Source of the DNA: an uncultured Chloroflexia bacterium
GTDB lineage: Bacteria > Chloroflexota > Limnocylindria > Limnocylindrales > CSP1-4
Direction: 5' to 3'
Assembly: GCA_963768655.1 (NCBI GenBank)
Contig: CAVYIM010000003.1
Coordinates: forward strand, 576,001 to 640,000
Length of the DNA: 64,000 nt
The position numbers and the translations under genes were made by a program. This document shows, piece after piece, positions 6,863-28,071 of this stretch. Below the pieces are notes generated by a model, which saw only the letters and a program-made list of their open reading frames with translations, was not told the origin of the DNA and did no database searches. Within the stretch, counting starts at the first letter, position 1; each line of letters begins with the position of its first letter.

Positions 6863-6909
6863 TGTCCGCGGAGACAACGAGCTTGCCGGGCGCCTCGCTC
6901 CCTGCGTAA

Positions 6910-6943: not shown

Positions 6944-6965
6944 CCAACCGGAAAGGAGCACCGGG

Positions 6966-9170: not shown

Positions 9171-9218
9171 TGGCGGAGCTGGGCCGACTGACTGCGAACC
9201 GGCCGGCCGGATCGATCC
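9171..9218 (+). repeat. att-like repeat, copy 1
   Basis: TGGCGGAGCTGGGCCGACTGACTGCGAACCGGCCGGCCGGATCGATCC; similar to 11768, 14270 and 15753. Confidence 0.75.
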
Positions 9219-9463
9219 GGAGTTGTCTGGCACCAATCTGCCGCGCCCGGCGCACGTGACCTGGCCGGCGTGACGAGATGGGCTTCTTGGGGGGAGGACG
9301 GCCGCCCGGCCAACGCTGCCTGCCAGCGAATAGCTGGCAGGCGCTACGATTGCCGAGCCACTCCTCTGGGTGGGGGAGAGGAGGAACGGTTCGTCGTTGG
9401 TCCGAGGGCGCGGTTCATCCGATTGATGCGCCGCTCGCTCTCTCCGGAGCTTAGGAGACTGCG

Positions 9464-10333
9464 ATGCCGTTTGGAATCGGGGAGCATTGGGTCAAGGCGC
9501 AAGGTCTGGTCGTCGCGAGCCGCGAGATCGGCAGCAAGGGCCTGGGAACGTGGCGCGAGGAGTGGGTGGTCGAGGTCCACACAGCGGAGGGGGAAACGTT
9601 CCGGTCCCCGATCAAGTGGCCGCTGGTCGAACATGATGATTTCAGTTTCATTCCGTGCTCAGAGGGCGAGACGGTCAGAATCGAGTACGACCCCAAGAAC
9701 CACAACCTCCGCTGGGACAAGTCAGATCCGGCGAGAAACATGCTCGCGAAGACGCCCTCCGACGAGCTTGCGCGGCAGAACCAGGCTTTCAACGACGCGT
9801 TGGCGGGACGGACTCCCTCTGCGTCAGGTCCGTCTGTCGCCGGGCTGGATCCGGATCTACAGGAGCTTGTGAACCTTCAGGCCAGGGCGGGCGCTCAGGC
9901 ACCGGCCGCGGACGGCAAGGTGGGCCTCGACTTCCAGTTCGATGCCAGCGGCCGGCCGGCAGCCGGTCAGGTGGAGAACGTGGTCGGCGCGGTTGCCAGC
10001 GGCCAGATGCGGACGATCAGGGGCAAGGCGGACGAGATTCTTGCGACCGGGACTCACGGCACCGCGGTGATCACCACGGCCTCGCCGCTCGGCAAGACGG
10101 TCCGCGACATCAACCCGAACGCCGATCCCTCGCGTCTCAACGACCCCATGTGGCTTTTCACACTCGAGGTCAGTCTGGCCGGCCAACAGCCATTTCCGGC
10201 GGTCTTCGGTCATCGTGTGCCGCTGGCCAAGCTGGCTTCCGTCGCTCCGGGCGTGAAGCTGGCCGTCGCGGTCAACCCGGCGAACCCCAACAACGAGGTC
10301 GCGATCGACTGGGACAAGTCGCCGCTCTCCTGA
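9464..10333 (+). CDS. hypothetical protein
   Basis: Long ORF with RBS AGGAG and high-GC3 codon usage. Confidence 0.7.
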   Translation: MPFGIGEHWVKAQGLVVASREIGSKGLGTWREEWVVEVHTAEGETFRSPIKWPLVEHDDFSFIPCSEGETVRIEYDPKNHNLRWDKSDPARNMLAKTPSDELARQNQAFNDALAGRTPSASGPSVAGLDPDLQELVNLQARAGAQAPAADGKVGLDFQFDASGRPAAGQVENVVGAVASGQMRTIRGKADEILATGTHGTAVITTASPLGKTVRDINPNADPSRLNDPMWLFTLEVSLAGQQPFPAVFGHRVPLAKLASVAPGVKLAVAVNPANPNNEVAIDWDKSPLS

Positions 10334-10518
10334 AGCCCACTCGCCTCGGGCACGACGCGCACGGCTCAAGTCACGGCCGCGGTCCTCTGAGTCAGACGAA
10401 GTCCGCGCCGGGCAGGCCTCGAGGTGGATTACTCTCCGCCGACCGGTGCTAGCCTGGCTTCGGTCGAGCACGCGCGGGCTGGCGGCCGTGGACCGGAAGC
10501 GAAAGCCACGTGGGGAGA

Positions 10519-10983
10519 TGCATGGAACACACATACAAGGTCGGCAGCACAGAGCGGATCGGCAACCTGGTCGCGAAGGTGTTGGTGAGAGCGGGAGTCG
10601 GGCCGAAGCGCATGCGCCTCCTCACCATCCAGGGACGCAAGACCGGCAAGCCCCACACGATACCGCTAACTGTGGTCGAGACCGACGGGCAAAGATGGCT
10701 CGTGGCGCCCTATGGCGGCGTGGCCTGGGCCAAGAACGCCAGGGCGTCCGGCACCGCGAAACTGAGCCGGGGTCGAGTGACGGAGCAGGTGAAGGTCGAG
10801 CCGGTCGACGCCCATGAGAGCGCACCCGTGCTGAAGGCCTACATCGGCATAGAGCCGATCACAAGGTCCGCGTTCGAAGTCGGGCCGGACGCGAGCCTGG
10901 AGGAGTTCGAAGCCATCGCGCCGAACCATCCGGTCTTCCGAATCCTCCCGGTCCGGCCGGCCGACTCTGTCGCTTCGGAGTAG
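10519..10983 (+). CDS. deazaflavin (F420)-dependent nitroreductase family (DUF385-like)
   Basis: LLTIQGRKTGKPHTIPL, WLVAPYG..AWAKNARA, HPVFRI. Confidence 0.85.
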   Translation, partial: CMEHTYKVGSTERIGNLVAKVLVRAGVGPKRMRLLTIQGRKTGKPHTIPLTVVETDGQRWLVAPYGGVAWAKNARASGTAKLSRGRVTEQVKVEPVDAHESAPVLKAYIGIEPITRSAFEVGPDASLEEFEAIAPNHPVFRILPVRPADSVASE

Positions 10984-11058
10984 CGCCCCCGCTGCGCTGG
11001 TCGTCGACGATCCCGGCCCCCGCTGGGCCAGTTCGAGCAGCGGCGCCGGGGGCATATC

Positions 11059-11721
11059 ATGCAGGCCAACGGAAGGGGGCCATTGGTGGCAGACGCATCG
11101 GTGGGCGCATCCGATCTTCACGGGGCACCGACAAAGCCGGCGCGTCGCGGCCCGATCCCACGCGCCCGGCTGTTTCTAGGTGGCCTGGGCGCGATCGCGC
11201 TGGCGGTCGTGGTCGGGGGAAGCTGGTCGCTGTCGCACTCCAGCTCGCCGTCGGCGCAGGCCAGCCCGTCCTTCGCCGTGTACGCGGTCAATCCCGGCGC
11301 CAGATTGGCGGACATCGCCACGTGCTCCACGCCGGCTCAGACCTACGGCCAGACTCAAGCCGACTGGGGCGAGGACTACTTCATCGGGGTTTACCTCTAT
11401 GTAAACTTCACCGGCCAGCCCGACGCCCACGTCGCTGCCCTGCGGGCGCTCTTGCCGTCCAGTTGTGCGGTCTACGTCCGGATCGTCCCGATCTCGTCGG
11501 CCGCAGGCCGAGCGCTTCAAGAACGGATAGAAGGCGACATGGCGTCGCTCCAGGCCGCGGGGATACCCATCAACTCTGTCGGTTTCAACCCGATGAGCGA
11601 CAAGGTCGAAGTGGGCGTCTATCCGCTGACGCCACAGGCTCAAGCCGAGTTGGAGCGGCGATACCCAACGGGGATGCTGGACATCCACCAAGAGGCACCC
11701 GCCGTGCCGGTAGCGTCATAA
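11059..11721 (+). CDS. membrane-anchored hypothetical protein
   Basis: One TM helix, Ser/Pro linker, then a globular domain. Confidence 0.6.
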   Translation: MQANGRGPLVADASVGASDLHGAPTKPARRGPIPRARLFLGGLGAIALAVVVGGSWSLSHSSSPSAQASPSFAVYAVNPGARLADIATCSTPAQTYGQTQADWGEDYFIGVYLYVNFTGQPDAHVAALRALLPSSCAVYVRIVPISSAAGRALQERIEGDMASLQAAGIPINSVGFNPMSDKVEVGVYPLTPQAQAELERRYPTGMLDIHQEAPAVPVAS

Positions 11722-11767
11722 GGTAGTCCGTCGATGCGGCACTGGGCACGGATCTCGCGGAAAGGAG

Positions 11768-11815
11768 TGGTGGACCTCGCCCGACTGACGGCGAACCGCC
11801 CCGGGGGATCGATCC
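11768..11815 (+). repeat. att-like repeat, copy 2
   Basis: TGGTGGACCTCGCCCGACTGACGGCGAACCGCCCCGGGGGATCGATCC. Confidence 0.8.
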
Positions 11816-11891
11816 AGCGTTCCTTGGTACTGGTCCGGCCGTCTCGTCCTGCGGTCTGCAGTTCGTCCGCTCGCCCTGTGGCCGGGGCACC

Positions 11892-13244
11892 CTAGCCCGA
11901 GTGTTCCGAGGTCAGGACCGACAGCGGCACGCCGCGGATCCTCTCTTGCAGCGGGTCATCACGCCCGAACTCCTCACTCCAGACGAGCCAGTCGCCACGG
12001 ACGGAAACCTCGTAGCTCTCGCTGCCTTCAGTGTCGACCTGCACCGGCGACGACCAGCCCGGTTGCCAGATGGTCAGCACATCGTGCCAGGCCTGTCCCC
12101 AGGCCTCCTGCTCCCACCAGGCCACGGCGCCCGAGCCGCATGCCATGCCGTCTATCCCCTTGGTGCCGGTGTCGCTGTCTGCGGGGCTGATCGGCTGGGC
12201 ACCTGTGTAAGGAGCGGCTCCGGTGTAGAGGCGCGGAGCCTGGAAGAAGCCTCCGGTCTCCGCATCCGCAATGGGATCGACTACCCACGCAGCCAGATCG
12301 GCCGCTGCATTGATCTGGTAGGCGGCTGCACCGATCTGCCTGGACCCACCCGAAGGCGTCCAGTGCCAGAGATGCGTGTGGCTGACGGTCCCCATGGTCG
12401 CGTCGTAGGCACCCGCCGAGTAGAGCAGACCGTCACCCACCAGGGCCATGTCGAACGGGTCCTGCGACGTCTGGATCGTGGCCTGGACCTTGCCCGAGAG
12501 GTCTCTGATCTCGATCTGCCAGCCGCGCGCGAGAGACTCGAGCATTGCGATGCGGCTCCCGTCGAATCGGATCTCGGTGACCTCGGAGTGGCCCCCGAAC
12601 CTCGGTGTCAGGCCCTGGGTCACGATCTTGACCGCGCCAGTCGCGAGATCCATGGCCTTGACGGCCCACTCCTTTGTAGGCGCGTAAACGTCTGAACCCG
12701 CGTGAGCTACTTCGAGCCAAACCAGCTGGCCGCCGGCGAGCTGGGGGTCGACTATCGCCACGCGCAGCGAGGTGCTCTCCTTCGCCTGGTAGACGATCTT
12801 GACCGACTTGGTCGTGAGATCCCCGTACCAGAGATCACCATCGTTCTCGTAGTCCGCGCTGTTGAACGCGATCTTGGAGCCGTCATTGGTGAGGTACTTG
12901 ATCTGTGGGTGGGTGAAGGGTCCGATGTCCTGGCAGGCGTCCGAGCCGAGCGGAATGGAGATGTGCGCGAAGGCGTACTGGGGCTCGGGACGCGTGCCGT
13001 GGGAGTCCCCGCAAGCTGTTCCCGAAGACGGGCTGGCGGTCGCGGCCGGCTCGGTCGACGACGGGCTCGCAGCCTGCTCCGAAGGTGATCCGACCGCGGA
13101 AGCACTGCTTGGGCTGGGGCTTGGCGTGCTGGTCGTCGTCGTGGGACTGTTCGATCCACAGCCCGAGATCACGAGGGCGATGGCGAGGGCACGCGCCCCC
13201 GCCATCACAGCTGCCCTAGTACCAGAGCGGCGCCTGAATGCCAC
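11892..13244 (-). CDS. lipoprotein with probable beta-propeller
   Basis: Lipobox ISGC, Ser/Pro/Thr linker, repeated beta-strand blades. Confidence 0.7.
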   Translation of the reverse strand: MAFRRRSGTRAAVMAGARALAIALVISGCGSNSPTTTTSTPSPSPSSASAVGSPSEQAASPSSTEPAATASPSSGTACGDSHGTRPEPQYAFAHISIPLGSDACQDIGPFTHPQIKYLTNDGSKIAFNSADYENDGDLWYGDLTTKSVKIVYQAKESTSLRVAIVDPQLAGGQLVWLEVAHAGSDVYAPTKEWAVKAMDLATGAVKIVTQGLTPRFGGHSEVTEIRFDGSRIAMLESLARGWQIEIRDLSGKVQATIQTSQDPFDMALVGDGLLYSAGAYDATMGTVSHTHLWHWTPSGGSRQIGAAAYQINAAADLAAWVVDPIADAETGGFFQAPRLYTGAAPYTGAQPISPADSDTGTKGIDGMACGSGAVAWWEQEAWGQAWHDVLTIWQPGWSSPVQVDTEGSESYEVSVRGDWLVWSEEFGRDDPLQERIRGVPLSVLTSEHSG

Positions 13245-14169
13245 TGCCAGTCGCCTCTTTGTCCATGGCCTGGTAGTAGTTGGCCTGGGGCATCACCCAG
13301 TAGCAGCCCCACGTCCCTGATCCGTACGCGGTGCTAATGCACGCGGCATTGCTGCTGCTGGTCCGCTTCGACCAAGGATCGTAGCTCGTGACCGTGCCCG
13401 CGTTGTCGTCATAGCCCGTCGCCTCAGTGGCATGCAACCCGCCAGACGTGAAGTTGCCGTAACCGCCGTTGGCCAGGCTGACCCTCACGTAGTTGGCTTC
13501 CAGGTAGCCCCAGAGGTCCTCCCGCACGAAGCTCATGAACGTCGCGGTCGATGTCGGCTTCACAGGATAGTAATAGAAGGTGTACCCGTGATTCGAGAAC
13601 TGGGCATTGATCCAGGGGAGCGCGTGGATGTCGTTCACACCGCTCGCGGTCCCTTGAAGAGCGGCGAAGATCGCGTCTTGGCCCTTCCTGACAGTCCCTT
13701 TTCCCATCGTCTCATATGACGTGCCCAGGTCGAACACCGCGAACGACTGTACGGCAGCCACAACGCAGTAGATCGTTGTCTGCTCGTGCATGCCCGGGAA
13801 GAAGCTTGTGATGTCAAAACTGCAAGGGAACCCGTCAACGCAAGTGGCGTACATCGGCTGCACTGCACCTGTGCTCAGGGCCGCCCCAACACCAGTCTTG
13901 ATGCCTCGGCTCACGGGCTGGGCCGTGATGGTACCAGCGTCGATCTCAGCTGTAATGGCGTCCTTCAGCTGCTTGTAGGCGGCGGGAACACCGTCGTCTA
14001 CGGCCGGCCCCCCGGACCCGATCGGAATGGCAATTCCGGTGCCGGTACCGGTGTAGGCGGGCGCAACCGCGTTCGGATTCGCCGCGTAGGCGACGGAAGA
14101 CGACGCGCAACCCAATGCCAGAGCAGCCAACACTGCTGCTAGCGCGCGTCGGCCCACGAGACATACCAT
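13216..14169 (-). CDS. secreted C39-like (papain-fold) cysteine peptidase
   Basis: Signal peptide; QTTIYCVVAA ... LHATEATGYD ... YDPW matches the Q/C/H/D pattern. Confidence 0.6.
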   Translation of the reverse strand: MVCLVGRRALAAVLAALALGCASSSVAYAANPNAVAPAYTGTGTGIAIPIGSGGPAVDDGVPAAYKQLKDAITAEIDAGTITAQPVSRGIKTGVGAALSTGAVQPMYATCVDGFPCSFDITSFFPGMHEQTTIYCVVAAVQSFAVFDLGTSYETMGKGTVRKGQDAIFAALQGTASGVNDIHALPWINAQFSNHGYTFYYYPVKPTSTATFMSFVREDLWGYLEANYVRVSLANGGYGNFTSGGLHATEATGYDDNAGTVTSYDPWSKRTSSSNAACISTAYGSGTWGCYWVMPQANYYQAMDKEATGSGIQAPLWY

Positions 14170-14269
14170 GGAACCCCCACTCGGACAGCCCCGGGTCCCT
14201 CGCCCGGGCTCGATGTCTGTCCACTAGGACACTACATGCTAGGCATCACCCAGTCAACACGAACGTTGC

Positions 14270-14304
14270 TGGTGGACCTCGCGCGACTGACGGCGAACCG
14301 CCCG
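14270..14304 (+). repeat. att-like repeat, copy 3
   Basis: TGGTGGACCTCGCGCGACTGACGGCGAACCGCCCG. Confidence 0.8.
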
Positions 14305-14588
14305 TGCGGAAAGATCCGATGCTCGCTAGCGATGGCCCGGAAGTCCGGCCGGGTGGGTCGTGGCCGGCTTGAGGCCGACTGCCCGGCGTGAAGTCGCGTC
14401 GGGACTTCGTAGTTCATAGCCGATCGTTGTGATACGCCGCTGTGCCTACATTGGGGCGAACAGTCCCGGCCGGCTACTCGCCATCAGAACACGGATAGGT
14501 AGCGGCTCCTGAGCGGCAAGGCAGAGGACCACCCTGAAGTAAGGTGCAACGGCGGCCCGGGGTCAGGCGTTAGACCTGATAGAAGGGA

Positions 14589-15086
14589 GTGGCGGTGGAA
14601 TCGGTCGCGGACGCGAGCCGAAGCGAAGCAGAGGGTTTCGACGCGGCCGTCCGCCGGCACGAGAGCTGGCTGATCGGGCGGCTCGCGCTCGTCGTCGGCG
14701 ACCGCGAGGAGGCCCGCGATCTCGCTCAGCAGACGTTCCTCAGAGCCGCCGAGCGCTGGCCCATCGGCACGGACGGCGAGGTCGCGCGCTGGCTCTCTGT
14801 GGTAGGCGTGCGGCTCGCGATCGACGAGCGCAGGCGGCGCCGGCGCTGGGGCTTCCTGCCTATCGAAGAGGCGGATTCGACCTGGGCTCTTGCCGCCGAC
14901 CCCGACGTGTGGCGGGCCCTATCGCGGCTCGACCGTCGTACCCGAGCGGCGCTGGTGCTCACGGTGATCGAGGGCTACTCGCAGGATGAAGTCGCGGAGG
15001 CTCTCGGCGTACCCCGCGGGACGCTGGCCAGCTGGCTGTCTCGGGCGCGGAGTCGCCTTCGCGCGGCACTAGAGGAGCGTGAGTAG
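14589..15086 (+). CDS. ECF RNA polymerase sigma factor
   Basis: EARDLAQQTFLRA, EGYSQDEVAEALGVPRGTLASWLSRAR. Confidence 0.9.
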   Translation: MAVESVADASRSEAEGFDAAVRRHESWLIGRLALVVGDREEARDLAQQTFLRAAERWPIGTDGEVARWLSVVGVRLAIDERRRRRRWGFLPIEEADSTWALAADPDVWRALSRLDRRTRAALVLTVIEGYSQDEVAEALGVPRGTLASWLSRARSRLRAALEERE

Positions 15087-15088
15087 CG

Positions 15089-15727
15089 ATGGACGATCTC
15101 GACGCTCGGATCCGGACCCGCCTCGTCGCCCTGGCGGACGCAGCCACGCGAGAACCGGTCACTCCCGCGGCCGCGACTCTCGGGCAGCGTCCTCGGGTGC
15201 GGAGTGCCGCGCCTGTCGGAGTGCTGGCTCTCGGTGCGGTCCTTCTTGCTGCGGTCGTGATCGGAGTCCGCCTGGGCCGGCAGCCCGGCGTCGCGCCCTC
15301 TCCGGCCGCTCAGTCACCGTCTGCGATCGTGGCGAGCCCCTCTACGAGCCTCGCTTCGGTCGTGCCGACGGTCACCCCATCGCCCTCGCCCACCATTGCT
15401 TCGGCCGCACCCACCGTGACCCCGTCGCCGCTGCCGTCGGGCGGGATCTCCGAGGAGCGCGCCATCGAGCTTGCCAGGCAGCAGGGCTTCTATACCTTCG
15501 TCAGCGCCGTCGCTGGTACGTTCGAACAGAACAACATAGGGATCGGGCCGGGCGCAGGGATCGCGCAGGATCGAATGGTCTGGGCCGTCACACTTTCGGG
15601 CACTGCCGCTCCCTGCCCGCCCAACGGAGCGACGTGTGGGCCGCCCAGGGCCGGCACTGTGATTTACTACTTCGACTACTACACGGGCGCCTTCCTAGCC
15701 AGCTACGGCTCATTCCCTGCGCCATAG
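15089..15727 (+). CDS. putative anti-sigma membrane protein
   Basis: MDDLDARIRTRL N-terminus, one TM, Ser/Pro linker; directly after the ECF gene. Confidence 0.7.
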   Translation: MDDLDARIRTRLVALADAATREPVTPAAATLGQRPRVRSAAPVGVLALGAVLLAAVVIGVRLGRQPGVAPSPAAQSPSAIVASPSTSLASVVPTVTPSPSPTIASAAPTVTPSPLPSGGISEERAIELARQQGFYTFVSAVAGTFEQNNIGIGPGAGIAQDRMVWAVTLSGTAAPCPPNGATCGPPRAGTVIYYFDYYTGAFLASYGSFPAP

Positions 15728-15752
15728 GCTCAGCGCGTTCCGCTGCGCCGGA

Positions 15753-15774
15753 GCCCGACTGACGGCGAACCGCC
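15753..15774 (+). repeat. att-like repeat, copy 4 (distal part only)
   Basis: GCCCGACTGACGGCGAACCGCC, identical to part of copy 2. Confidence 0.7.
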
Positions 15775-16133
15775 TGGGTGGGATGGTGCGGTGCTCGCTG
15801 GCAATGCCGAGCGACTGGCGTCGGAGCGGGGCGTCGCATTTGGCGACGGTATCGAGGCCGATCGCCTGGCCTTTGGCTGGGCCGCCTCGAAGTGCGAGTG
15901 GCCTCAGATAAGCGGCGGCGCCTGGCCAAGCATCGCCGTGAGCTCCAACGTTGGGGACGTGCCCGACTCTCCGGCGACCAGCGCCGAGCACAGGTGTTGC
16001 GGCCCTGGACGCTGCGCGGCGTGGTGCGCCGGGGCCGAAGACGCGAGCCGTGAGGCGGTTCCGCGAGGCTTGGAGGCTCGGTACGTCACAATTGTCGATG
16101 GGGCGAATCTCGCGCGATCTCGGAGGAGACAAG

Positions 16134-16901
16134 GTGGGCGATCGGCTGACATTCCTCGGCCATTCGACCGTCCTGGTCGACCTCGATGGCGCCCGAGTGT
16201 TGACGGATCCGCTGCTGGGCCACCTGGCGATAGCCATCCGGCGCCAGGTGCCTGCCGTGCCTCCTGACACCCTCCGTGACCTTTCGGCGGTCTTCATCAG
16301 CCACGGTCACCTGGATCATCTGGATCTCGAATCCCTTCGGGCTCTTCCGGGCCAACCGGCGCTCATCGTCCCGGTCGGCCTGGGGCGCGTCGTGGCAAAG
16401 GTCGCGCGCGGCGCGGTCCGCGAGGTGCGGGCCGGCGACCGGCTGCAGGTCGGCGATCTGACGCTGGAGGCCGTCCACGCAGAGCACAGCCGCCGCCGCT
16501 CGCTCTTCACGGCCGCCGAGGGTCCTCTGGGCATCCTCATCGTCGGGTCGACGCGCGTCTACTTCGCCGGCGACACCGGCCTCTTCCCGGGAATGCGGCA
16601 GCTGGCCGGGCGGGTCGACGTGGCGCTCCTGCCGGTGAGCGGTTGGGGTCCCACGCTCGGGCGCGGCCATCTGGACCCGCAGACGGCGGCCGAGGCGGCC
16701 GTACGGATCGGCCCCGCGATCGCCACTCCCATCCACTGGGGCACGCTTTATCCACTCGGCCTCCGGCGCCTTGCGAGCCGCCAGTTCGAGGGACCGGGCG
16801 AGGCTTTCCGCCAGGCGGTCGCCGCGCGCGACGCTCGAATTGACGTGCGCGTTCTGCAGCCGGGGCAATCGATGGCCCTCGACGGGAGGGCCGGGCGATG
16901 A
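16134..16901 (+). CDS. MBL-fold metallo-hydrolase
   Basis: FLGHST, LTDP, ISHGHLDHLD, YFAGDT, PIHWGT. Confidence 0.9.
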   Translation: MGDRLTFLGHSTVLVDLDGARVLTDPLLGHLAIAIRRQVPAVPPDTLRDLSAVFISHGHLDHLDLESLRALPGQPALIVPVGLGRVVAKVARGAVREVRAGDRLQVGDLTLEAVHAEHSRRRSLFTAAEGPLGILIVGSTRVYFAGDTGLFPGMRQLAGRVDVALLPVSGWGPTLGRGHLDPQTAAEAAVRIGPAIATPIHWGTLYPLGLRRLASRQFEGPGEAFRQAVAARDARIDVRVLQPGQSMALDGRAGR

Positions 16902-18985: not shown

Positions 18986-19054
18986 CGCCGCGTCCGACCG
19001 GACCGCGTCGCGAACAGTCCGGCCACCAGAACGGAGGGTCGCCGGGACTCAGGT

Positions 19055-19585: not shown

Positions 19586-19756
19586 CCTCGTCTCCTTCAT
19601 GGCCCGTCCACCGCCGGGCGAGTGCGCTCTCAAGCCCGTGGGTGGGGCGGGCGCAGACATCTTCGATCAGGCCCGCTCGACCCGCACATCGTGATCGTAT
19701 GTCTGACCGTGCAGGCCCGCGGGCGCGAGGGTTTCGACCGTCGGGATGCCCGACCC

Positions 19757-19828
19757 TCAGCGACGACTGACACGCAACCCGCCGAACAGGAAGAGCACGA
19801 TGAGGATGACGACCAGGAGTTCCAACAC
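19757..19828 (-). CDS. 23-aa membrane peptide MLELLVVILIVLFLFGGLRVSRR (DUF3309-like)
   Basis: RBS AGAAGG, GTG start, hydrophobic helix with basic tail; not in ORF track. Confidence 0.7.
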   Translation of the reverse strand: MLELLVVILIVLFLFGGLRVSRR

Positions 19829-19874
19829 AGGACACCTTCTTTCATGATCAGCCTGCTCGTCTTCACCCGCGGGT

Positions 19875-19892
19875 GCGAGGATGAAAACCCCC
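19875..19892 (-). promoter_or_regulatory. conserved promoter motif, copy A
   Basis: GGGGGTTTTCATCCTCGC-N19-CAGGCT. Confidence 0.65.
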
Positions 19893-20024
19893 GCCGTAAC
19901 CCACCTGGCGTTCTCTGGGCGGCTGGCAGAGCGAGCCGTCCATCCTCCCGGCGACCTGAGGCTGGCCGAGGATCCGCCGATAGTCGTAGCTCGACTCCCG
20001 GGTGCATCGATTCCAGCCGGGCCT

Positions 20025-20042
20025 GCGGGTCTTCATCCTCAC
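20025..20042 (+). promoter_or_regulatory. conserved promoter motif, copy B
   Basis: GCGGGTCTTCATCCTCAC-N20-AAGACT. Confidence 0.6.
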
Positions 20043-20136
20043 AATCGATCGTCAGGCAGGGTAAGACTCGAAGCGGACCTCCTTAGACTCCGCCCGTTCC
20101 GGGCGAGCAGGCCAGGTCCCGATCGAGGAGACTCCC

Positions 20137-20304
20137 TTGGCTCGCAACAAGATGTTCAGCAACCCCAAGTCGGTGTTGGTCATCGTGGCCTGTATCTGCT
20201 TCGCGATCGCCGTGCTCACGACGGCTGGGATCCTCTCGATCGGCAGCAAGATCGACTGGACCAACCTGGGCCTGTTCTTCGGCTTCCTCTCCTTCATCGT
20301 CTGA
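20137..20304 (+). CDS. small 2-TM membrane protein
   Basis: RBS GAGGAG, TTG (or ATG 20152) start; ...VLVIVACICFAIAVLT...DWTNLGLFFGFLSFIV. Confidence 0.7.
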   Translation: MARNKMFSNPKSVLVIVACICFAIAVLTTAGILSIGSKIDWTNLGLFFGFLSFIV

Positions 20305-20572
20305 CGCGTCGGGCGCGCCCGCCAAACTGGAGCGCCCGGTTCACGGTCGTGGAACGCCACCTGGGCGGTTAGCCCTGCTGGCTACCCCGACGAGCCCCCA
20401 CGAGACGCGCGGCTCGAGCATCCTGCGCCCCGCTGCGCCGTACGGGACCTCGGCGCTGTGCACAGCCTGACGGACCACGTTGGCATGAAAGAGCAGGACC
20501 GGCCCCTCGTCCGGGGACCGATCCTGCTGGATGAGATCAGAGCGAGGCAAGAGCCCCGCGAGCGTTCTCGGC

Positions 20573-20857
20573 TCAGCGCCAGCCGAACGAGCGACGCCGG
20601 CCGCCGAGGCTTCCGACGACGAAGACCACGATCAGCGCACCGACCACCGCGACGATGATGCTCGTGGTGTTGACGCCGGTCACGTTGGCGATCTTGAGGA
20701 CATCTGCGGCAATCCATCCGCCGACGATGGCGCCCACGATACCGAGCACGACCATCATCACCAGGCTCTCACGGGACCCGGAAATGAGGCTGGCGAGGAA
20801 GCCGGCGATCGCGCCGACGACGAGCCAGGTGAGGAGAGTCATATTGGGAATATCCAC
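20573..20857 (-). CDS. GlsB/YeaQ/YmgE stress-response membrane protein
   Basis: WLVVGAIAGFLA...LGIVGAIVGGWI...IVAVVGALIV. Confidence 0.9.
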   Translation of the reverse strand: MDIPNMTLLTWLVVGAIAGFLASLISGSRESLVMMVVLGIVGAIVGGWIAADVLKIANVTGVNTTSIIVAVVGALIVVFVVGSLGGRRRSFGWR

Positions 20858-20926
20858 GGGATTCCTTCTTTCTTGTTGAGCGCATGCCGGAAGCCGGGCG
20901 ACGGGGCTGCGCGAGTAGCGGCCGGA

Positions 20927-21340
20927 TTATGCGAGGGCGGGCTCGTGCCGGAAGATCGCGAGGCCCCAGAGAACGATCAGTTCGACGATCGTCCAGCCGA
21001 CAAAGGCGACGACTGCGGCGACATCGAGCACGGAGCCGCCGGAGGAAGCGGCGCTGATGCGCAGGATCCCCTGGAACGGCGCGGCGACGAGCCCGCCAAC
21101 GTTGTTGATGATCGCAACGAGCAGGTTCCCTGTGCGTGCGTCGAGCAGCAGCAAGACGATCCGCAGGCCGAGCACGATCTGGATCAGGCCGAAGACGAGG
21201 ACGACGATGCGGCGGGTTGTCTCATTGTTGCTGGGCCGATAGTCGAACTGGCGCCTGGTGGTGGTCCGGTTGCGAAGGCCACCGGACTCGGTGGGCGTCG
21301 GCGCGTCGGTGGTGACGCTCCGCTGTTCCTGAACTGTCAC
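20927..21340 (-). CDS. YggT-like membrane protein
   Basis: LGLRIVLLLL...LVAAPFQGI...AAVVAFVGW. Confidence 0.75.
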   Translation of the reverse strand: MTVQEQRSVTTDAPTPTESGGLRNRTTTRRQFDYRPSNNETTRRIVVLVFGLIQIVLGLRIVLLLLDARTGNLLVAIINNVGGLVAAPFQGILRISAASSGGSVLDVAAVVAFVGWTIVELIVLWGLAIFRHEPALA

Positions 21341-21416
21341 GGTGGTCTTCTTCCCGGCGACGGACGATGGACCTGCACCCGGCCATCAAGCCGGTGGGGC
21401 CTTCGATCCGTTGTCA

Positions 21417-21911
21417 CTATTCGATAGTGGACCTGCCGCCGGGCGTGTCGCGAGGATGAAAACCCCCTGCTGAACAGGCGTCGGAGTGGGCGCCGCCGCT
21501 ACGGCAGAGCCGGGTGCGGGGCCTGGTGAGACCGGCGCGTCGGGACACGATCGCGAAGCCGAGGATCGACGCGGGTGCAAAGCCGGCCAGCGTGACCAGG
21601 CGCGGCGCCCTCGCCAGACGGAGGCCAGCACCCAGACCGATCGAGGCGACCGCCAGGAGTCGCAGCGCCGAATCGGGCATCGTTTGCAGGCCGGTTACCG
21701 TGCTCCCCGCGCCGGATTGCACGCGGTCGAAGGCCCCCGGAAGCCGATCGCCGACCTGACCCGCGCGATGGCGCGCCGCGCCGGCGATTTCCGGCACGTG
21801 CCCGATAGCCTTGGCCACCCCGGTGCGTGCCTGATCGATCGCAGCTCGCGCGCCGGCGAACGACGCCTGTCCGTTGTCCTGGGTTTCCATCGTGATCTCC
21901 GTCGTAGTCAT
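21417..21911 (-). CDS. hypothetical protein (amphipathic N-terminus, C-terminal TM)
   Basis: ORF downstream of motif copy D; 3' end uncertain. Confidence 0.5.
   Translation of the reverse strand: MTTTEITMETQDNGQASFAGARAAIDQARTGVAKAIGHVPEIAGAARHRAGQVGDRLPGAFDRVQSGAGSTVTGLQTMPDSALRLLAVASIGLGAGLRLARAPRLVTLAGFAPASILGFAIVSRRAGLTRPRTRLCRSGGAHSDACSAGGFHPRDTPGGRSTIE
21450..21467 (-). promoter_or_regulatory. conserved promoter motif, copy C
   Basis: GGGGGTTTTCATCCTCGC-N20-CACTAT, identical to copy A. Confidence 0.65.
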
Positions 21912-22013
21912 GTTGAGGTGCTGGGTCGTGTCCACGGCCCAAGGCCTGGCGGGTTGGACGCCGGACGACGTACTCGCCCTCATGTAGCAACGTGGGCGTC
22001 CGCAGACAGTCTT

Positions 22014-22031
22014 GCGAGGATGGAAACCCTG
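22014..22031 (-). promoter_or_regulatory. conserved promoter motif, copy D
   Basis: CAGGGTTTCCATCCTCGC-N19-CACGTT. Confidence 0.6.
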
Positions 22032-22120
22032 CCCTGAGGACGTCGGTTGTGCCGGTCTCTGTTGGGCCGGTCGGGACCTGGGTCCACTTCACTCGATCGC
22101 CAACCTAGAATGTGAACAAC

Positions 22121-25100
22121 ATGGCGCGACCGGCGATCCCAGCGGAATCTCAGCTCGTCGTGATCGGATCCTCGGCGGGCGGAATCGAGGCGCTCTCGCG
22201 CGTGGTCGCGAGCCTGCCGGCCGACTTCCCGGCGCCGATCGTGATCGCGCAGCACCTCGACCCCCGCCGCCCCAGCCATCTGCACGAGATCCTGGCCCGC
22301 CACGCAACTCTGCCCGTCCGAGTGGTCGAGGAGCGCGAAGCCCTGGAGGACGGCGTGATCTTCGTCGTTCCTTCGAACCGGATCGTGGAGATCAGCCACG
22401 GCGACCTCCGGCTTCGCGCAGCCAAAGCCGGTGCCGTCGCACCCTCCATCGATGTGCTGTTCGAGAGCGCGGCCAGTGTCTTCGGCCCCGGGCTCATCGC
22501 CGTGATCCTGACCGGCAGCGGGTCCGACGGATCCTCGGGAGCCTGGCACGTCAAGAAGGCCGGCGGAGCGGTCGTCATCGAGAACCCCGCGACGGCCATG
22601 TTTCCCTCGATGCCCAGCTCGATACCCCCGTCCCTGGTCGACGCGACAGCTGATCTCGACTCGATTGGATCGATCCTGTGCGATCTGCTGGCGGCCGGCA
22701 ATGCTCCGGCGGAGGGGCCCGACTACGACGAGCTTGGCAAGCTCCTCGAGCGGATCCACGCGCGAAGCGGCATCGATTTCCGCAGCTACAAGCCGGCTAC
22801 GATCCTGCGGCGTTTGCGCGGCCGGATGAACGCCACTTCTCGCCCAACGCTCGCCGGGTACGCGGCGTTGCTGGAATCCGATCCCGAGGAGTTCGCCAGG
22901 CTCCTCAACAGCCTCCTGATCAAGGTCACGGAGTTCTTCCGGGACCCGAAACTCTTCGAGTACCTGGGCGCCCATGTCCTCCCCGAGTTGATCGCGGAGG
23001 CCCGGCGCGAACAGCGGGAACTCCGCATCTGGTCGGCCGGGTGCTCCACGGGCGAAGAGGCCTACTCCCTGGCCGTCGTCGTTGCCGAAGCCCTCGGAGA
23101 CGAGCTCCCGTGGCCGGATGTCCGGATCTTCGCGACTGACATCGACCGTGAGGCGATCGCCTTCGCCCGCCGGGGGATCTATCCGCCGGCAGCCCTCAAG
23201 GGCCTGCCCGCAGGCGCTCGAGACCGCTACTTCGTGAAATCGGACGGGGGATACGAGGTCGCCAAACGGTTGCGCACCCTGATGGTGTTCGGCGAGCACG
23301 ACCTCGGCGAGCGAGGGCCCTTCCCGCGAATCGATCTGCTGCTCTGCCGGAACGTGCTGATCTACTTCGCCGCGCCGATGCAGCGGATCGCCCTCGAGAC
23401 GTTCGCGTTCTCGTTGCGGCCAGGCGGTCGGCTGGCCCTCGGCACGTCCGAGAGCGTCATGGCCCTGCCGGAGCCGTTCGAAGAGGAGCACGCGCGACTG
23501 CGGGTCTATCGGCGGCGGCCCGGGAGCTACGCGATCCCACCGATGCGACCGGTGGCGCTCCACCCGCGTCGGAGCCAGGAATCTCAGCTCGATCAGGCCA
23601 TCCGAGTCACGCACCGCGACGTCCAGCGCGTGGCGGAATCGTCGTCGTCGGCGGATAGCCTGCTGCTCAACCTGACGGTGGGCATCGTCGTCGTCGACCC
23701 GCGCTACTACATCGTGCGGATCAACTCCGCGGCCCGCCAGATGCTCGGGATCCACGGCGCGGCCTACGACCAGGACTTCGTCCATCTCGCCGAGGTTCTT
23801 CCGCCCAGTGCGATCCGAGCTGCCATCGACTCCGCGCTGGCGGGCAAGAAGACCACGTCCGTGTTCGAGGTGGAGCCCACGGATGCCGCCAGCGAGACAG
23901 CCCATTTCGTGGAGGCCACCGTCCGCCCTTACCGGGTCGAGGACCGCGCCATCGAAGGCGTCGTCGTCGAGCTGACGGACGTAAGCAGGCTCGAGCAGGA
24001 GCGTCGAGCCGGCGTCCGGACACGGGAGCGACTCGAGAAGGCGGTCGCCACGAACGGCCGGCTCCTTCGAGCGAACGAGGAGCTGACCGCCCTGGTCGCC
24101 GAGCTCAGGTCGGCGAACGAAGCGATGCTCCTGGCCAGCGAGGACGCGCAGGCCACTCGCGAGGAAGTGGAAACCGTCAACGAGGAGTTCCAGGCCACCA
24201 ACGAGGAGCTCGAAACCCTCAACGAGGAGCTGACTGCCAGCGTCGAGGAGCTGCGGGTCGCGAACGAGGATCTCGCGACTCGCACCGAAGAGCTCAGCGA
24301 GCAGGCGGTCGTGCTGGAGCAGCAGCGGTTGAGCATCCAGGAGGAGCACGATCGTCTGCGATCGATCCTGGCGAGCCTGGGCGACGCGGTCGTCGCGGTC
24401 GACTACGAGGGCCGCATTATGACGACAAACGACGCCTACGATCGGCTCTTTGGCAACGCCGAGATCGAGCCCGAGGATGCCGCCGGCCTCCCGATTCCAC
24501 CGGCAGACTGGCCTCTGAGACGGGCTGCCCGAGGCGAACGGTTCCGTATGGAATTCGCGGTCGCCCGGCCCGGGCAGAGTAGACGCTGGTTCGAGGCCGT
24601 GGCGGAGCCGCTCACCGCCGGTGACCGAACCTGGGGCGGCGTGCTGACGATCCGGGACCTTTCCGAACGCACGATGCGGCTCAGCCTGGAGCGGCTGATG
24701 GCCGCTGCGGGTCACGAGCTCAAGACCCCGGTGGCCGCCCTGCATGGATACCTCCAGCTCGTCGAAAGGAACCTCGGCCCGGAGAGCTCCACGCAGGCCC
24801 GGACTTATGCGGCCCGGTCGCTGGTGCAGACCAGGCAGATCGGGGAACTCATCGAGCGTCTCTTCGACGTCAGCCTCATCCAGGGCGGCAACCTCGAGCT
24901 CATCACCGCGCCGATCGATCTCATTGCGGTCGTGCGCGATGCAGTCGACGTTGCCGGGACATTGCCGAAGGCGCCGCCGATCCGGGTCTCGGCGACCGCT
25001 GGACCGATCCTCGTCCAGGCGGATGCTGTTCGCCTGGAGCAGGTCTTCGTCAATCTCCTCTCGAACGCCGTCGAGCACGCGGGCAGCTCGCCGACCATCG

Positions 25101-25396
25101 GCGTGTCCGTGAGCCGATCCGGCACGACGGCCGTCGTCGAGGTCCGCGACCACGGTCCGGGGATAGCCAGCGAGGTTCTGCCGCAGCTGTTCCAGCCCTA
25201 CGCGCGGCTGGGGCACAAGCCGTCTGGCGGGCTGGGTCTTGGACTCTACCTGGCACGCGAGATCGTGATCGCGCATGGCGGAACGATCGAAGCCGAATCG
25301 ACCCTCGGCGAGGGAACTACCCTCACCGTTCGGCTCCCGCTCCGGCGGCGGAGGTCTCGCCGCGAGGCCGCTCCGGCGGCGGAGGCAGGATTGTGA
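22121..25396 (+). CDS. CheB-CheR-PAS-histidine kinase fusion
   Basis: IGSSAGG/QHL/LTGSGSDG (CheB), VTEFFRD/WSAGCSTGEEAYS/CRNVLIY (CheR), NEE..ATNEELET coil, GHELKTP, GLGLGL. Confidence 0.93.
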   Translation: MARPAIPAESQLVVIGSSAGGIEALSRVVASLPADFPAPIVIAQHLDPRRPSHLHEILARHATLPVRVVEEREALEDGVIFVVPSNRIVEISHGDLRLRAAKAGAVAPSIDVLFESAASVFGPGLIAVILTGSGSDGSSGAWHVKKAGGAVVIENPATAMFPSMPSSIPPSLVDATADLDSIGSILCDLLAAGNAPAEGPDYDELGKLLERIHARSGIDFRSYKPATILRRLRGRMNATSRPTLAGYAALLESDPEEFARLLNSLLIKVTEFFRDPKLFEYLGAHVLPELIAEARREQRELRIWSAGCSTGEEAYSLAVVVAEALGDELPWPDVRIFATDIDREAIAFARRGIYPPAALKGLPAGARDRYFVKSDGGYEVAKRLRTLMVFGEHDLGERGPFPRIDLLLCRNVLIYFAAPMQRIALETFAFSLRPGGRLALGTSESVMALPEPFEEEHARLRVYRRRPGSYAIPPMRPVALHPRRSQESQLDQAIRVTHRDVQRVAESSSSADSLLLNLTVGIVVVDPRYYIVRINSAARQMLGIHGAAYDQDFVHLAEVLPPSAIRAAIDSALAGKKTTSVFEVEPTDAASETAHFVEATVRPYRVEDRAIEGVVVELTDVSRLEQERRAGVRTRERLEKAVATNGRLLRANEELTALVAELRSANEAMLLASEDAQATREEVETVNEEFQATNEELETLNEELTASVEELRVANEDLATRTEELSEQAVVLEQQRLSIQEEHDRLRSILASLGDAVVAVDYEGRIMTTNDAYDRLFGNAEIEPEDAAGLPIPPADWPLRRAARGERFRMEFAVARPGQSRRWFEAVAEPLTAGDRTWGGVLTIRDLSERTMRLSLERLMAAAGHELKTPVAALHGYLQLVERNLGPESSTQARTYAARSLVQTRQIGELIERLFDVSLIQGGNLELITAPIDLIAVVRDAVDVAGTLPKAPPIRVSATAGPILVQADAVRLEQVFVNLLSNAVEHAGSSPTIGVSVSRSGTTAVVEVRDHGPGIASEVLPQLFQPYARLGHKPSGGLGLGLYLAREIVIAHGGTIEAESTLGEGTTLTVRLPLRRRRSRREAAPAAEAGL

Positions 25397-26001
25397 TCCG
25401 CTTGGCGATAGTCGAGGATCATCCTGCAATCGCCGAGGGGCTCACGGCGCTGCTGCGGGGCGAGCCCGACGTGACCGTCGTCGGGACGGCCCCGGACGAT
25501 GTGGCGGCCGACCATCTCATCGCTGCCCAATCCCCCGACGTCGTCTTGTGCGACATCCGTCTGGCCGGGACCGTGGACGGGCTGGAGGTCCTCGCCCGCC
25601 ACACGCCGGGCCCGGCATTCATCATGCTGAGCGCGTACTCGTATCCAAGCTATTACGTCGCCGCGGTCGAGCACGGAGCGAAGGGCTACCTCTCGAAGAT
25701 GGCGACCATCGAGCAAATCCTCAGAGCAGTGCGCACGGTCGCTGCTGGAGGCACCGCATTCCCGGACGGCGTCCGCCGAGCCGTCCGCACGGCGCTTCGT
25801 TCGCCGACTCCGCGCGAGGCCCAGATCCTGGCGCTCGTGGCCGAGGGCCTCGGTAACGCGGAGATCGCCGAACGTCTGTCGCTCCGGCTCAAGACTGTCG
25901 AGAGCCAGCTCCGGCGCATGTTCGATCGCTACGACGTGACGAACCGGACCTCGCTGGTGCGCGTCGCCCAACGGCAGGGCTGGATCGAAGGCGATCGCTA
26001 G
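25393..26001 (+). CDS. NarL/LuxR family response regulator
   Basis: IVEDH, LCDIRL, GYLSK; TPREAQILALVAEGLGNAEIA HTH. Confidence 0.93.
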   Translation: MIRLAIVEDHPAIAEGLTALLRGEPDVTVVGTAPDDVAADHLIAAQSPDVVLCDIRLAGTVDGLEVLARHTPGPAFIMLSAYSYPSYYVAAVEHGAKGYLSKMATIEQILRAVRTVAAGGTAFPDGVRRAVRTALRSPTPREAQILALVAEGLGNAEIAERLSLRLKTVESQLRRMFDRYDVTNRTSLVRVAQRQGWIEGDR

Positions 26002-26125
26002 TCCGTGCCGGGGACTGTCAGGTCGGTGGTAGACCTGCGGCTTGAGGCACCACGAAGGCCCGCGAACCGGACTAACCCAGCCTCAGCCGGTTGCGGCGCC
26101 GTTTCGTAGATGGTATATATAACCC

Positions 26126-26716
26126 ATGACAGCTAACCCGCCGGATAACCGGTACCGCCGACGTTTCCTGGTCGAATTCACCCCCGCCGAGTCCGATCTT
26201 GCGGAGCGGCTCGGGGCTGTTCACGGCTCCAAGCGCCGGGCGATCGTGACCGGGTTGGGATTGCTGGAGAGCGGCGAAGTAGAGGCGCTCCGCGGCCAAG
26301 TCGCCGCGCTGGAGAAGGAGCGTGATGCCGCCAGGGCGGCCGCCTCCAGGGCCGGTGAGAGCCTCAAGGCCGCGAAGGAGCGGGCTGCAAACGCGAAGGA
26401 AGCCGCCGCCGAGCTGCGCGCCGAGCGGGCTGCCCACAACAAGACGAAGGCGGAACTCGCCCAAGCTCGCCGCGAAATGGCATCAACTCTAGAGGCGCTC
26501 ACAGCTGCACAATCTGAGCTGCAGCGCTACGCGTCGAGCCTTCCGACCATGGCCTACTGCCGCGAATGCGACAAGTTCGTGCCACTGACCGAATGGAGCG
26601 AACGGGCCGCCGAGGGTGGCGTCGTGCACGTCTACCACAACAAGCACGAATATCGACCCAGGGGCTCGATAACGAAGTACGCCACAGTCATGTTCATGAG
26701 AGGAGGGACCAAGTGA
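26126..26716 (+). CDS. hypothetical protein (RHH-like N-terminus, coiled coil, CxxC..HxxH)
   Basis: RRFLVEFTPAE...SKRRAIV; long Ala/Glu coil; YCRECD...HNKH. Confidence 0.7.
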   Translation: MTANPPDNRYRRRFLVEFTPAESDLAERLGAVHGSKRRAIVTGLGLLESGEVEALRGQVAALEKERDAARAAASRAGESLKAAKERAANAKEAAAELRAERAAHNKTKAELAQARREMASTLEALTAAQSELQRYASSLPTMAYCRECDKFVPLTEWSERAAEGGVVHVYHNKHEYRPRGSITKYATVMFMRGGTK

Positions 26717-27144
26717 GCGAACAACTTGCCGGAATGCCGGCCTCGATCCTCGGGCCGGAGCCGAGTCTGCTGACCATCATCGCCCTGCTCTTGCTCTGGA
26801 TCTCGGGCGCGTTCGAGCGGGCCCTTGCGGAGGCCTTCCTGCCCGCAGCTCCAGCCCGACCGCCTTCGATCCACCTGGCAAGGCCGCGCCTGGTACCCAT
26901 GTCCGCGGAGAGGGCTGCCATCGGCAGCCAGACGCCCGTCGAGCCTGTCAGCGCCGACGACGTGGCCTTGATCAGCTGGTCGCTCACCGAGGCCCTCGAC
27001 GAGGTCCTCAAGGCCATCCCGACGCCGCGGGCCAAGGCGCTGTTAAGACTGCTAATAGAGGAGATCCGTCCTTATTCAGGCGGGCCTGGTCGCAATGGCT
27101 CGTCCCGTATCGGCTGCGGGCGTAGCAGGTGTAGTAGGCGTTAG
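26713..27144 (+). pseudogene. small membrane ORF fused to an LSR-like C-terminal fragment
   Basis: TM N-terminus followed by ...TPRAKALLRLLIEEIR. Confidence 0.5.
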
Positions 27145-27180
27145 CGCTTACCGCCGCGACCGCGAGCAGCTGCGCCGATC
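27067..27180 (-). pseudogene. inverted LSR zinc-ribbon fragment
   Basis: Minus strand reads IGAAARGRGGKR / (frameshift) NAYYTCYARSRYGTSHCDQARLNKD. Confidence 0.6.
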
Positions 27181-27300
27181 ATCCGTGGTCGTCTCGCCGA
27201 TGGACATCCGGCCCACCTACCGAGTGCCGGCGATGACGGCCCCGGCAGAACCGCTGCCGGCCTCCGCCGACGCGGTTTGCCGTGCGGAGGCTATGGTGGA
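27181..27300 (+). pseudogene. LSR-like extreme C-terminus running into the tRNA att site
   Basis: VVSPMDIRPTYRVP...VCRAEAMVEMRGLEP. Confidence 0.6.
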
Positions 27301-27369
27301 GATGAGGGGACTCGAACCCCTGACCCCCGCGATGCGAACGCGGTGCTCTCCCAGCTGAGCTACATCCCC
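27294..27369 (-). tRNA. tRNA-Ala(CGC)
   Basis: GGGGATGTAGCTCAGCTGGGAGAGCACCGCGTTCGCATCGCGGGGGTCAGGGGTTCGAGTCCCCTCATCTCCACCA; 76 nt, G3:U70 pair, CCA end. Confidence 0.97.
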
Positions 27370-27566
27370 ACGCGAGCGAGGGGCAGTCTAGCACAGGCCC
27401 CGGCGAACAAACCCCAGGATCTCGTGCATTGAATGCAACTTGGGCGCGGCCCGAGGCGGCCCGCGGCCACGCGCGATGTCGGGGCCGGTTCGAGCGCGGC
27501 CCGGGCGGGCATTCTGGTCAGATTCGTCATCTAGGACCTGTAGGCGGCCCTGGAGGGCTTCTACGC

Positions 27567-28043: not shown

Positions 28044-28071
28044 TTGACTATTAGAACACATGTTCTAGTAT
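28044..28071 (+). promoter_or_regulatory. promoter with LexA SOS box
   Basis: TTGACT-N16-TAGTAT with GAAC-ACAT-GTTC (28054-28065) in the spacer. Confidence 0.88.

Follow-up and report, generated by a model that had tools for sequence, protein, structure and literature searches.

Repeats beside a tRNA-Ala(CGC) gene in an uncultured Chloroflexota bacterium as probable attachment half-sites of serine-recombinase islands

The window, a 64,000-nucleotide stretch of DNA from an uncultured Chloroflexia bacterium (GenBank assembly GCA_963768655.1, contig CAVYIM010000003.1, positions 576,001 to 640,000), carries four repeats (R1 to R4) on the 3′ side of a tRNA-Ala(CGC) gene. The repeats are interpreted as the P′ halves of the attP attachment sites of islands moved by a large serine recombinase (LSR), each with about 50 nt of adjoining conserved sequence, the islands having been inserted successively at the tRNA gene; the probability of this interpretation is put at about 80%. 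The comparisons described here establish the anatomy of the attachment sites, their link to the tRNA gene, the LSR, the difference between empty and occupied sites, and the turnover of blocks at the P′ boundaries. An earlier note on this DNA had read the repeats as P′ arms left by successive LSR-mediated integration at the tRNA end, and tRNA linkage, the LSR, the spacing of the sites and the block turnover support that reading. The array in the window itself is probably a fossil, because the cognate LSR in this genome is a scrambled pseudogene.

R1 (9171-9246), R2 (11768-11843), R3 (14270-14345) and the partial copy R4 (15753-15806) all lie on the + strand, where the earlier note had placed four same-orientation repeats. 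In R2, TGGTGG occupies 11768-11773, with the central GG at 11772-11773, and CGAACC occupies 11792-11797. R3 matches a model of the element with E = 5.1e-20, R1 is the most diverged copy (five mismatches within the first 30 nt, model E = 9.4e-15), and R4, which matches model positions 16-95, starts at CCCGACTGACGG and is without the TGGTGGACCTCG start. A repeat search groups the copies as a 54-nt family of four and a 76-nt family of three. With at most one mismatch, the 15-nt core has four matches in the window, every one on the + strand; the exact 15-mer occurs four times in the 3.37-Mb genome, three times inside the array, and all three genomic occurrences of a 30-mer with up to six mismatches are inside it. 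At three mismatches the 15-nt core is uninformative (seven matches versus 4.9 expected, a number reached by 23 of 100 shuffles). A folded RNA element was considered and rejected, since the short core hairpin is broken by the variants in R1 and in the copies L011 and L015 and no covariation was apparent by eye. An Rfam scan of 8000-29000 gave no match at the repeats at E ≤ 1; its sole significant E-value was that of the tRNA, reported under the tmRNA clan with 40.4 bits (gathering score 47).

The tRNA-Ala(CGC) gene (27294-27369, - strand) provides a B′ half-site at its 3′ end, which reads TGGTGGAGATGAGGGGACTCGAACC on the + strand, in agreement with the earlier note. All distances are counted outward from a centre defined as the last GG of TGGTGG, which in the tRNA gene is at 27298-27299. 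From this centre, GGTTTG in the P arm beside the tRNA (27274-27279) and CGAACC in the P′ arms are each 18 nt away, the symmetry that the note had proposed, and CGAACC of the tRNA (27313-27318) is 13 nt away, 5 bp closer, as it had also observed. The difference between 13 nt and 18 nt equals the published shift of the zinc-ribbon motif, which occupies positions 16-24 of an attP half-site and lies 5 bp nearer the centre in attB, according to the excerpted text of Rutherford et al. (2013, PMC3783163). Because the spacing fits these motif positions, window 27269-27318 is read as attR (P-GG-B′), the repeats as P′ arms, and a junction on contig C72 of the related genome G005 as attP-like. The latter junction is clean, consisting of a flank, TGGTGG and TCCTCGCC (P-TGGTGG-P′), and forms an imperfect inverted repeat with GGTTCG and CGAACC each 18 nt from GG. 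When the P and P′ arms are read outward, 14 of 24 positions match, including nine of the ten at positions 15-24 (manual count). Every P arm ends in TGGT, restoring the discriminator base and CCA of the tRNA.

The possibility that the element is a diverged tRNA copy was rejected, since its similarity to the tRNA does not exceed that expected by chance: the 76-nt consensus, globally aligned with the reverse-complemented tRNA, scored 9, a score equalled or exceeded by 877 of 2000 shuffles, and ten other tRNAs of the genome outscore tRNA-Ala(CGC). It is the junctions and the LSR, rather than similarity, that give the resemblance its meaning.

The distribution of the element in the genus links it to this tRNA. 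A sequence-only model built from 16 copies finds the element, about 90 nt long, in 21 of 51 genus genomes with one to seven matches each; the 16-nt core with at most one mismatch is present at 26 places in 12 of 41 related genomes, often in same-strand clusters, versus five places for a reversed control. Ten genomes have tRNA-Ala(CGC) and the element on one contig (G000, which is the window's own genome, G001, G006, G010 with a weak copy, G015, G020, G023, G041, G057 and G061), and all ten have copies on the 3′ side of the tRNA in a single orientation, with the nearest copy at 0.75-11.5 kb; in the remaining 11 element-bearing genomes the tRNA is on another contig or was not found. A motif scattered through the genome with no tRNA link, against which the earlier note had guarded, is not what these ten genomes contain. 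Across 16 copies from nine genomes, 28 of 99 aligned columns show little or no variation; by contrast, a lipoprotein encoded in the flank of the array is only 61% identical between G000 and G006. The element matches are weak or absent in G017, G065, G016, G024 and G063, yet 5.4-10.8 kb separate cysE from the tRNA in these genomes, and therefore the hotspot also holds DNA that lacks the element.

The cognate recombinase, referred to as clade A, is intact in G001, G023 and G005 (three of the 51 genus genomes) as a protein of about 530-550 amino acids. It is an LSR because the G005 protein contains three LSR domains (Resolvase PF00239, Recombinase PF07508 and Zn_ribbon_recom PF13408) and matches solved serine integrases, with a full-length PDB match to the 500-residue "Integrase" 9iu2_A. 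Its reading frame passes through the attachment site: in G001 and G023 it runs into the tRNA, ending ...AEAMVEMRGLEPLTPAMRTRCSPS, and in G005:C72 it runs into an element copy (...AEAMVVLACQTANRSAGTVRC...). The C-terminus that had been predicted from the window alone is found in these intact proteins, as VEMRGLEP through the tRNA (G001 and G023) and as VVLACQTANR through the element (G005). The intact island of G005 (locus L097, G005:C72) also carries an MmeI-type methyltransferase/target-recognition gene at 33-2120, which suggests restriction or defence cargo.

In the window, only fragments of the LSR remain, as a scrambled pseudogene that includes the P arm (26881-27293, + strand). Residues 414-479 are encoded at 26881-27078, residues 309-334 are inverted (27065-27142, - strand), and the C-terminal residues 476-535 are encoded at 27185-27364; a displaced fragment with residues 329-409 is found on the 5′ side of the tRNA (27555-27797, + strand), 80% identical to the G005 LSR and with a blastn match to G001. 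The first 300 codons or so are gone from the window. Upstream of the fragments, window 26104-26905 matches the gene that precedes the LSR in G001, G023 and G005, and a 196-residue open reading frame (ORF) located there (26126-26716, + strand) has no Pfam match; nor was a directionality factor for excision identified. G052 and G055 possess truncated LSR tails only, and the arrays of G006, G010, G015, G020, G041, G057 and G061 have no cognate LSR at E ≤ 1e-20.

Empty sites are found in G042 and G012, where nothing but a terminator-like hairpin flank separates a lipoprotein paralogue from the tRNA, and in four genomes (G042, G012, G011 and G019) the homologue of this paralogue ends 84-168 nt from the 3′ end of tRNA-Ala. 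The window contains a homologous native gene at 6034-6807 (+ strand), the last one ahead of the attachment site, and next to it a displaced native B arm (6822-6873, + strand), which is the tRNA's terminator-like hairpin flank and is near-identical to the flank that abuts the tRNA in G042 and G012. This flank is now 20.4 kb from the tRNA, and it is followed by neither TGGTGG nor P′ in the window. A contig assembled from public sequencing run X3 joins a flank of the G042 type (30 of 30 letters shown, then GGAG) to TGGTGG, P′ and a homologue of the second block of the array, beyond which are another P′ and then unrelated DNA. An apparent joint of the X3 contig that goes back from 14250 to 11768 was discounted as the next P′ copy aligning to the more similar R2.

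Cassettes 1, 2 and 3, three blocks that each lie between two of the repeats R1-R4, and an island with LSR remnants, which extends from R4 to the tRNA, stand in tandem beside the target gene. Both outer flanks are syntenic with relatives, with cysK, cysE and the lipoprotein on one side (window 337-5818 is syntenic with G006, G010 and G055) and imuA/imuB-like genes on the other, and G001, G006, G010 and G015 do not share what lies between the repeats, so that gene content there is not conserved in relatives. Contigs of runs X2, X3 and X5 contain the block at 11770-14250 in other surroundings with about 94% identity, both flanks of the X5 copy being unlike those of the window, and an X2 contig joins 10984 straight to 11771, without the third gene of cassette 1; therefore, blocks have been gained, lost or reshuffled exactly at P′ boundaries. 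The parts of the window that are not covered by the public-run contigs are uninformative. The left arms of internal copies are of three kinds: LSR tails (G005:C72, and G055 with nine extra tRNA bases), hairpin flanks resembling those beside the tRNA, with GGTTCC about 20-26 nt from the centre (G010, G015 and G001), and others. Such a mixture would be expected if each newcomer inserted at the tRNA end beside whatever lay there.

In the proposed mechanism, the target of the islands would be the final six bases of the tRNA-Ala(CGC) gene, where the LSR would presumably cut at the central GG within TGGTGG, the reverse complement of CCACCA. The CGAACC of the tRNA T-loop would act as the zinc-ribbon-domain motif of the B′ half-site, and the P arm of the island, ending in TGGT, would restore the discriminator base and CCA of the tRNA. 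Every insertion would leave a P′ arm at the far edge of the new block and shift older blocks away from the tRNA, and repetition of this process, in the presumed order, could have filled the 20.4 kb between the displaced flank at 6822-6873 and the tRNA. A tRNA end already flanked by a resident island would also have to be usable as a target.

A second group of LSRs (clade B, 55-58% identical) adjoins other tRNA genes, namely tRNA-Ile(TAT) in G001:C3, tRNA-Ala(GGC) in G005:C13 and tRNA-Val(CAC) in G063:C5. At all three, GGTTCG of the P arm is 18 nt from the centre and CGAACC of the tRNA is 13 nt from it, and in G001:C3 and G063:C5 a distal P′ with CGAACC at 18 nt is found 11-14 kb away. At tRNA-Ile(TAT) the central dinucleotide is AG both beside the tRNA and in the distal site. 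Clade B is an independent replicate of the att-site spacing. With tRNA-Ala(CGC), four tRNAs have now been seen as LSR platforms: Ala(CGC), Ala(GGC), Ile(TAT) and Val(CAC).

The window's own genome has three further places where related sequences lie near tRNA genes. A P′ of the clade-B type (G000:C9:174159-174208, - strand) is in the expected orientation 4.1 kb from the 3′ end of tRNA-Ile(TAT) (C9:169957-170032); it contains an insertion of 12 nt when compared with the G001:C3 copy, there is no LSR nearby, and it would be a second fossil island. Two partial element copies (G000:C5:48075-48135 and 50907-50960, + strand) are 3.4 kb from tRNA-Leu(TAG) (C5:54331-54416, - strand), a gene without encoded CCA; their orientation is as expected and their CGAACC spacing does not fit. 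An exact 16-nt core without the remaining element (G000:C6:53318-53333, + strand) is 1.9 kb from tRNA-Val(CAC) (C6:51387-51463, + strand) in the reverse of the expected orientation, and is due to chance or is a rearranged remnant.

The genes of the array and its surroundings were mapped by codon-position GC and Pfam, with 32 ORFs in 6034-30482 included in the Pfam scan. On the left, beside the cysE/cysK-like genes, is a conserved secreted or lipoprotein-like gene (4943-5818, + strand) with 61% identity to the G006 protein whose gene precedes the first element copy of that genome; the paralogue at 6034-6807 is 31% identical to it. The most distal block encodes a TetR regulator (6927-7679) and a major facilitator superfamily (MFS) transporter (7676-9115), both on the + strand and identified by Pfam; upstream of the pair, an inverted repeat at 6906-6945 (TGACCTGAGGTCA ... 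TGACCCGAGGTCA) is likely the TetR operator. Cassette 1 (+ strand) consists of genes at 9464-10333, 10510-10983 (an F420H2-dependent reductase) and 11059-11721. Cassette 2 (- strand) encodes two secreted proteins of 450 and 317 amino acids (11892-13244 and 13216-14169). Cassette 3 (+ strand) encodes an extracytoplasmic function (ECF) sigma factor (14589-15086) and a membrane protein that resembles an anti-sigma factor (15089-15727); the translation of the latter has a transmembrane segment, and no Pfam match backs the anti-sigma label. From the module list of the earlier note, the F420 reductase and the ECF sigma factor are borne out by Pfam, and the C39-like peptidase has no Pfam support at E ≤ 0.01.

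The tRNA-proximal island extends over 11.5 kb (15807-27293, + strand), and its cargo at 15807-26880 (+ strand, Pfam) includes an MBL-fold protein, a fusion of holin-like and phosphodiesterase domains, a bPH protein, a CheB-CheR-PAS-kinase fusion, a LuxR response regulator and the 196-residue ORF. The first fusion (16898-18985, + strand, 695 amino acids) joins a holin-family domain with four transmembrane segments (PF04020) to a type I phosphodiesterase domain. The second (22112-25396, + strand, 1094 amino acids) combines CheB methylesterase, CheR methyltransferase, PAS domains and a histidine kinase, with the LuxR-type regulator next to it. In the right flank, a palindrome at 28046-28061 (TAGAACACATGTTCTA) is located just upstream of ORFs for a RecA-fold (ImuA-like) protein and an IMS-family (ImuB-like) protein; we take it to resemble the LexA/SOS box of a mutagenesis cassette.

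The identity of the att sites can be accepted and the formation of the array still be explained in another way. A strong contender, with a chance only somewhat short of even, is that full-size LSR islands were inserted serially and then lost their recombinase and most of their cargo, so that the blocks are stubs that keep a P′ edge and were never mobile by themselves, comparable to the cis-mobilizable elements (CIMEs) for which a route of accretion and decay is described in the excerpted text of PMC5704250. Such decay is visible in the scrambled LSR of the tRNA-proximal island and in the LSR tails of G052 and G055. Three observations speak against decay to stubs. In three other samples, cassette 2 has different neighbours, and in one of them the native flank adjoins it directly, yet its edges are unchanged (11770 to about 14250) and its identity is about 94%; P-like left arms, in which GGTTCC lies some 20-26 nt from the centre, occur at several internal junctions; and the P′ cores are nearly invariant. 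Alternatively, the small cassettes of 1.5-2.6 kb may be independently moving units without an integrase. Carried furthest, this would make the array one instance of a working integron counterpart in Chloroflexota of the Limnocylindria type, in which small cassettes without a recombinase, beginning with P′ and ending with a P-like sequence, are excised as circles and reinserted in trans by a few LSR copies that circulate in the population; little beyond ACCA and a T-loop would be read, and any suitable tRNA 3′ end could be a platform. This form is doubtful.

Three other explanations start from the repeats as such rather than from the islands. The repeats might be promoters or operators of a regulon of the ECF sigma factor encoded at 14589-15086, with GAACC as -35 and GATCC or GGTCC as -10 elements, given that the AAC-containing motif in R3 lies upstream of the ECF gene and that ECF sigma genes are also near copies in G006, G005 and G001. 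This was dropped on gene orientation and is extremely improbable: by manual count, about half of the copies (R2 and copies in G006, G001, G005, G015 and G023 among them) face a convergent gene downstream, the ECF operon of G006 runs antisense to the copies on either side of it, conservation of the 35-nt upstream part is as strong as that of the supposed -35 element, and the linkage to the tRNA and the LSR would be left unexplained. The repeats might also be the 5′ ends of small protein genes that by chance lie in a variable region, in which a start codon follows a Shine-Dalgarno-like GAAGG and the encoded peptide is VV/DLAR(Q/L)TANRPxGxVRCxLAM; this explanation is slightly less remote and still very improbable. 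Most copies do have a purine-rich stretch and ATG, GTG or TTG ahead of TGGTGG, and variability is somewhat higher at third positions within codons 13-24 (permutation p = 0.03, 16 related copies); the first 12 codons, on the other hand, have no periodicity (entropy 0.28, 0.49 and 0.41 at positions 1, 2 and 3), a GGAGG-like stretch also precedes the tRNA end itself, and the same frame is the LSR ORF continuing across the attP-like junction of G005, which accounts for the coding-like signal. The small-ORF explanation was set aside in favour of an LSR frame that crosses the site. Finally, position and orientation are as expected of tRNA 3′ fragments that have been displaced by tyrosine-integrase islands and have decayed, and a dispersed repeat similar to repetitive extragenic palindromic (REP) sequences or miniature inverted-repeat transposable elements (MITEs) may also be envisaged; the probability of either is negligible, considering that similarity to the tRNA is not significant outside TGGTGGA and CGAACC, that all copies have derived features in common that random decay would not produce, that no Phage_integrase domain was found among the 32 ORFs scanned, and that strong copies are confined to the tRNA sides and not dispersed.

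The interpretation of the repeats as P′ halves left by successive insertion also has to contend with several observations that weigh against it. According to PMC3783163, LSRs normally recombine attP with attB only, and insertion beside a resident island therefore presupposes an LSR that is less strict about the B arm. Inspection by eye of the B arms of native flanks found no conserved GGTTYG at the attB distance; tolerance of the LSR for the B arm would be plausible, because native B arms are not conserved. The clade-A LSR is intact in just three of the 21 element-bearing assemblies, the core-proximal part is missing from R4, and the left edge of the TetR-MFS block has no recognisable P′. In G055, the junction of the LSR tail with the element (locus L098, G055:C138, - strand, about 790-740) keeps nine bases of the tRNA end before a complete TGGTGG, and suggests a shifted or secondary event instead of a clean exchange. 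Junctions of excised circles were sought in the assembled contigs of public runs with shares of at most 0.10 of sampled words, and none were seen there. All of the compared genomes are metagenome-assembled, that of the window being 88.6% complete, and population variants may have been collapsed or be missing.

If the repeats are what they appear to be, the locus is of interest in several respects. At least four tRNA genes serve two LSR clades as targets at their extreme 3′ end, and the universal T-loop falls exactly at the place of the attB zinc-ribbon motif, providing a natural test of the 5-bp rule that distinguishes attP from attB. For genome engineers, the recombinases could be of interest as candidate integrases whose target is present in almost all bacteria. 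In the arrays, uncultured Chloroflexota of soil and peat have gathered regulators, transporters and defence genes at a single site.

The kind of system is known, and the variant, as far as the later literature was sampled, is a serine recombinase at the CCA-proximal end of a tRNA gene with the T-loop as the distal motif. tRNA genes are classic targets of tyrosine integrases. The sites resemble those of phage LSRs, as represented by the excerpted account of the Listeria phage integrase-attP structure (PMC3783163), in that attP is an imperfect inverted repeat around a central dinucleotide and the zinc-ribbon motif extends to about position 24 in attP and lies 5 bp nearer the centre in attB; unlike phage sites, the attB half-site here is a T-loop plus acceptor end with a B arm that is not conserved between genomes, and the arrays imply that newcomers insert next to resident elements, which canonical integrases do not do. 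Blocks without an integrase, with att sites at their ends, adjoin the target gene here as they do in the CIMEs of families of integrative and conjugative elements and integrative and mobilizable elements (IMEs) (Guedon et al. 2017, PMC5704250), for which integration, decay and new integration beside the regenerated target are proposed. The example in the excerpted part of that paper differs in being a tyrosine-integrase element at a tRNA-Lys gene, and serine-recombinase IMEs are described there as disrupting dispensable protein genes. The array also recalls integrons, because same-orientation sites punctuate a variable cassette array that grows at one anchored end; unlike integrons, no IntI, attI or attC-type site was seen, the flank genes are cysE/cysK-like plus a lipoprotein, and the cassettes contain one to many genes in both orientations with their own regulators and reach 7-11 kb. 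"Integron-like" is an analogy only.

The closest parallels are in the same phylum and in staphylococci. The ssrA islands of Dehalococcoides and their serine recombinase DsiB (McMurdie et al. 2011, PMC3146451, here and below as excerpted) also belong to the Chloroflexota and also form tandem arrays downstream of the end of a tRNA-like gene, and DsiB is a protein of about 540 amino acids at the island edge whose ORF enters the att site and the RNA gene, a likeness of size and position. Dehalococcoides islands that lack the integration module are regarded in that paper as cis-mobilisable elements gathered by accretion. The differences are that the target here is a true tRNA gene (several for clade B) instead of tmRNA, that the proposed cut lies some 5 nt from the CCA end instead of in the T-loop, that the shared core has 6-7 nt instead of a 20-bp direct repeat, and that no DsiA-like small serine recombinase or six-gene integration module was seen beside the LSR. 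A parallel between serine-recombinase islands and staphylococcal cassette chromosome (SCC) elements is drawn in PMC3146451. The present array is like SCC and SCCmec elements (CcrAB or CcrC) in being LSR-driven and located at the 3′ end of one conserved gene, with tandem elements parted by short direct repeats; it is unlike them in its target, which for SCC is the protein gene rlmH, and in that most SCC types use two recombinases. Tandem SCC elements include some without a recombinase, and CcrAB is relaxed in its choice of site pairs. The locus described here would extend accretion in the style of SCC elements and ssrA islands to a third kind of target gene.

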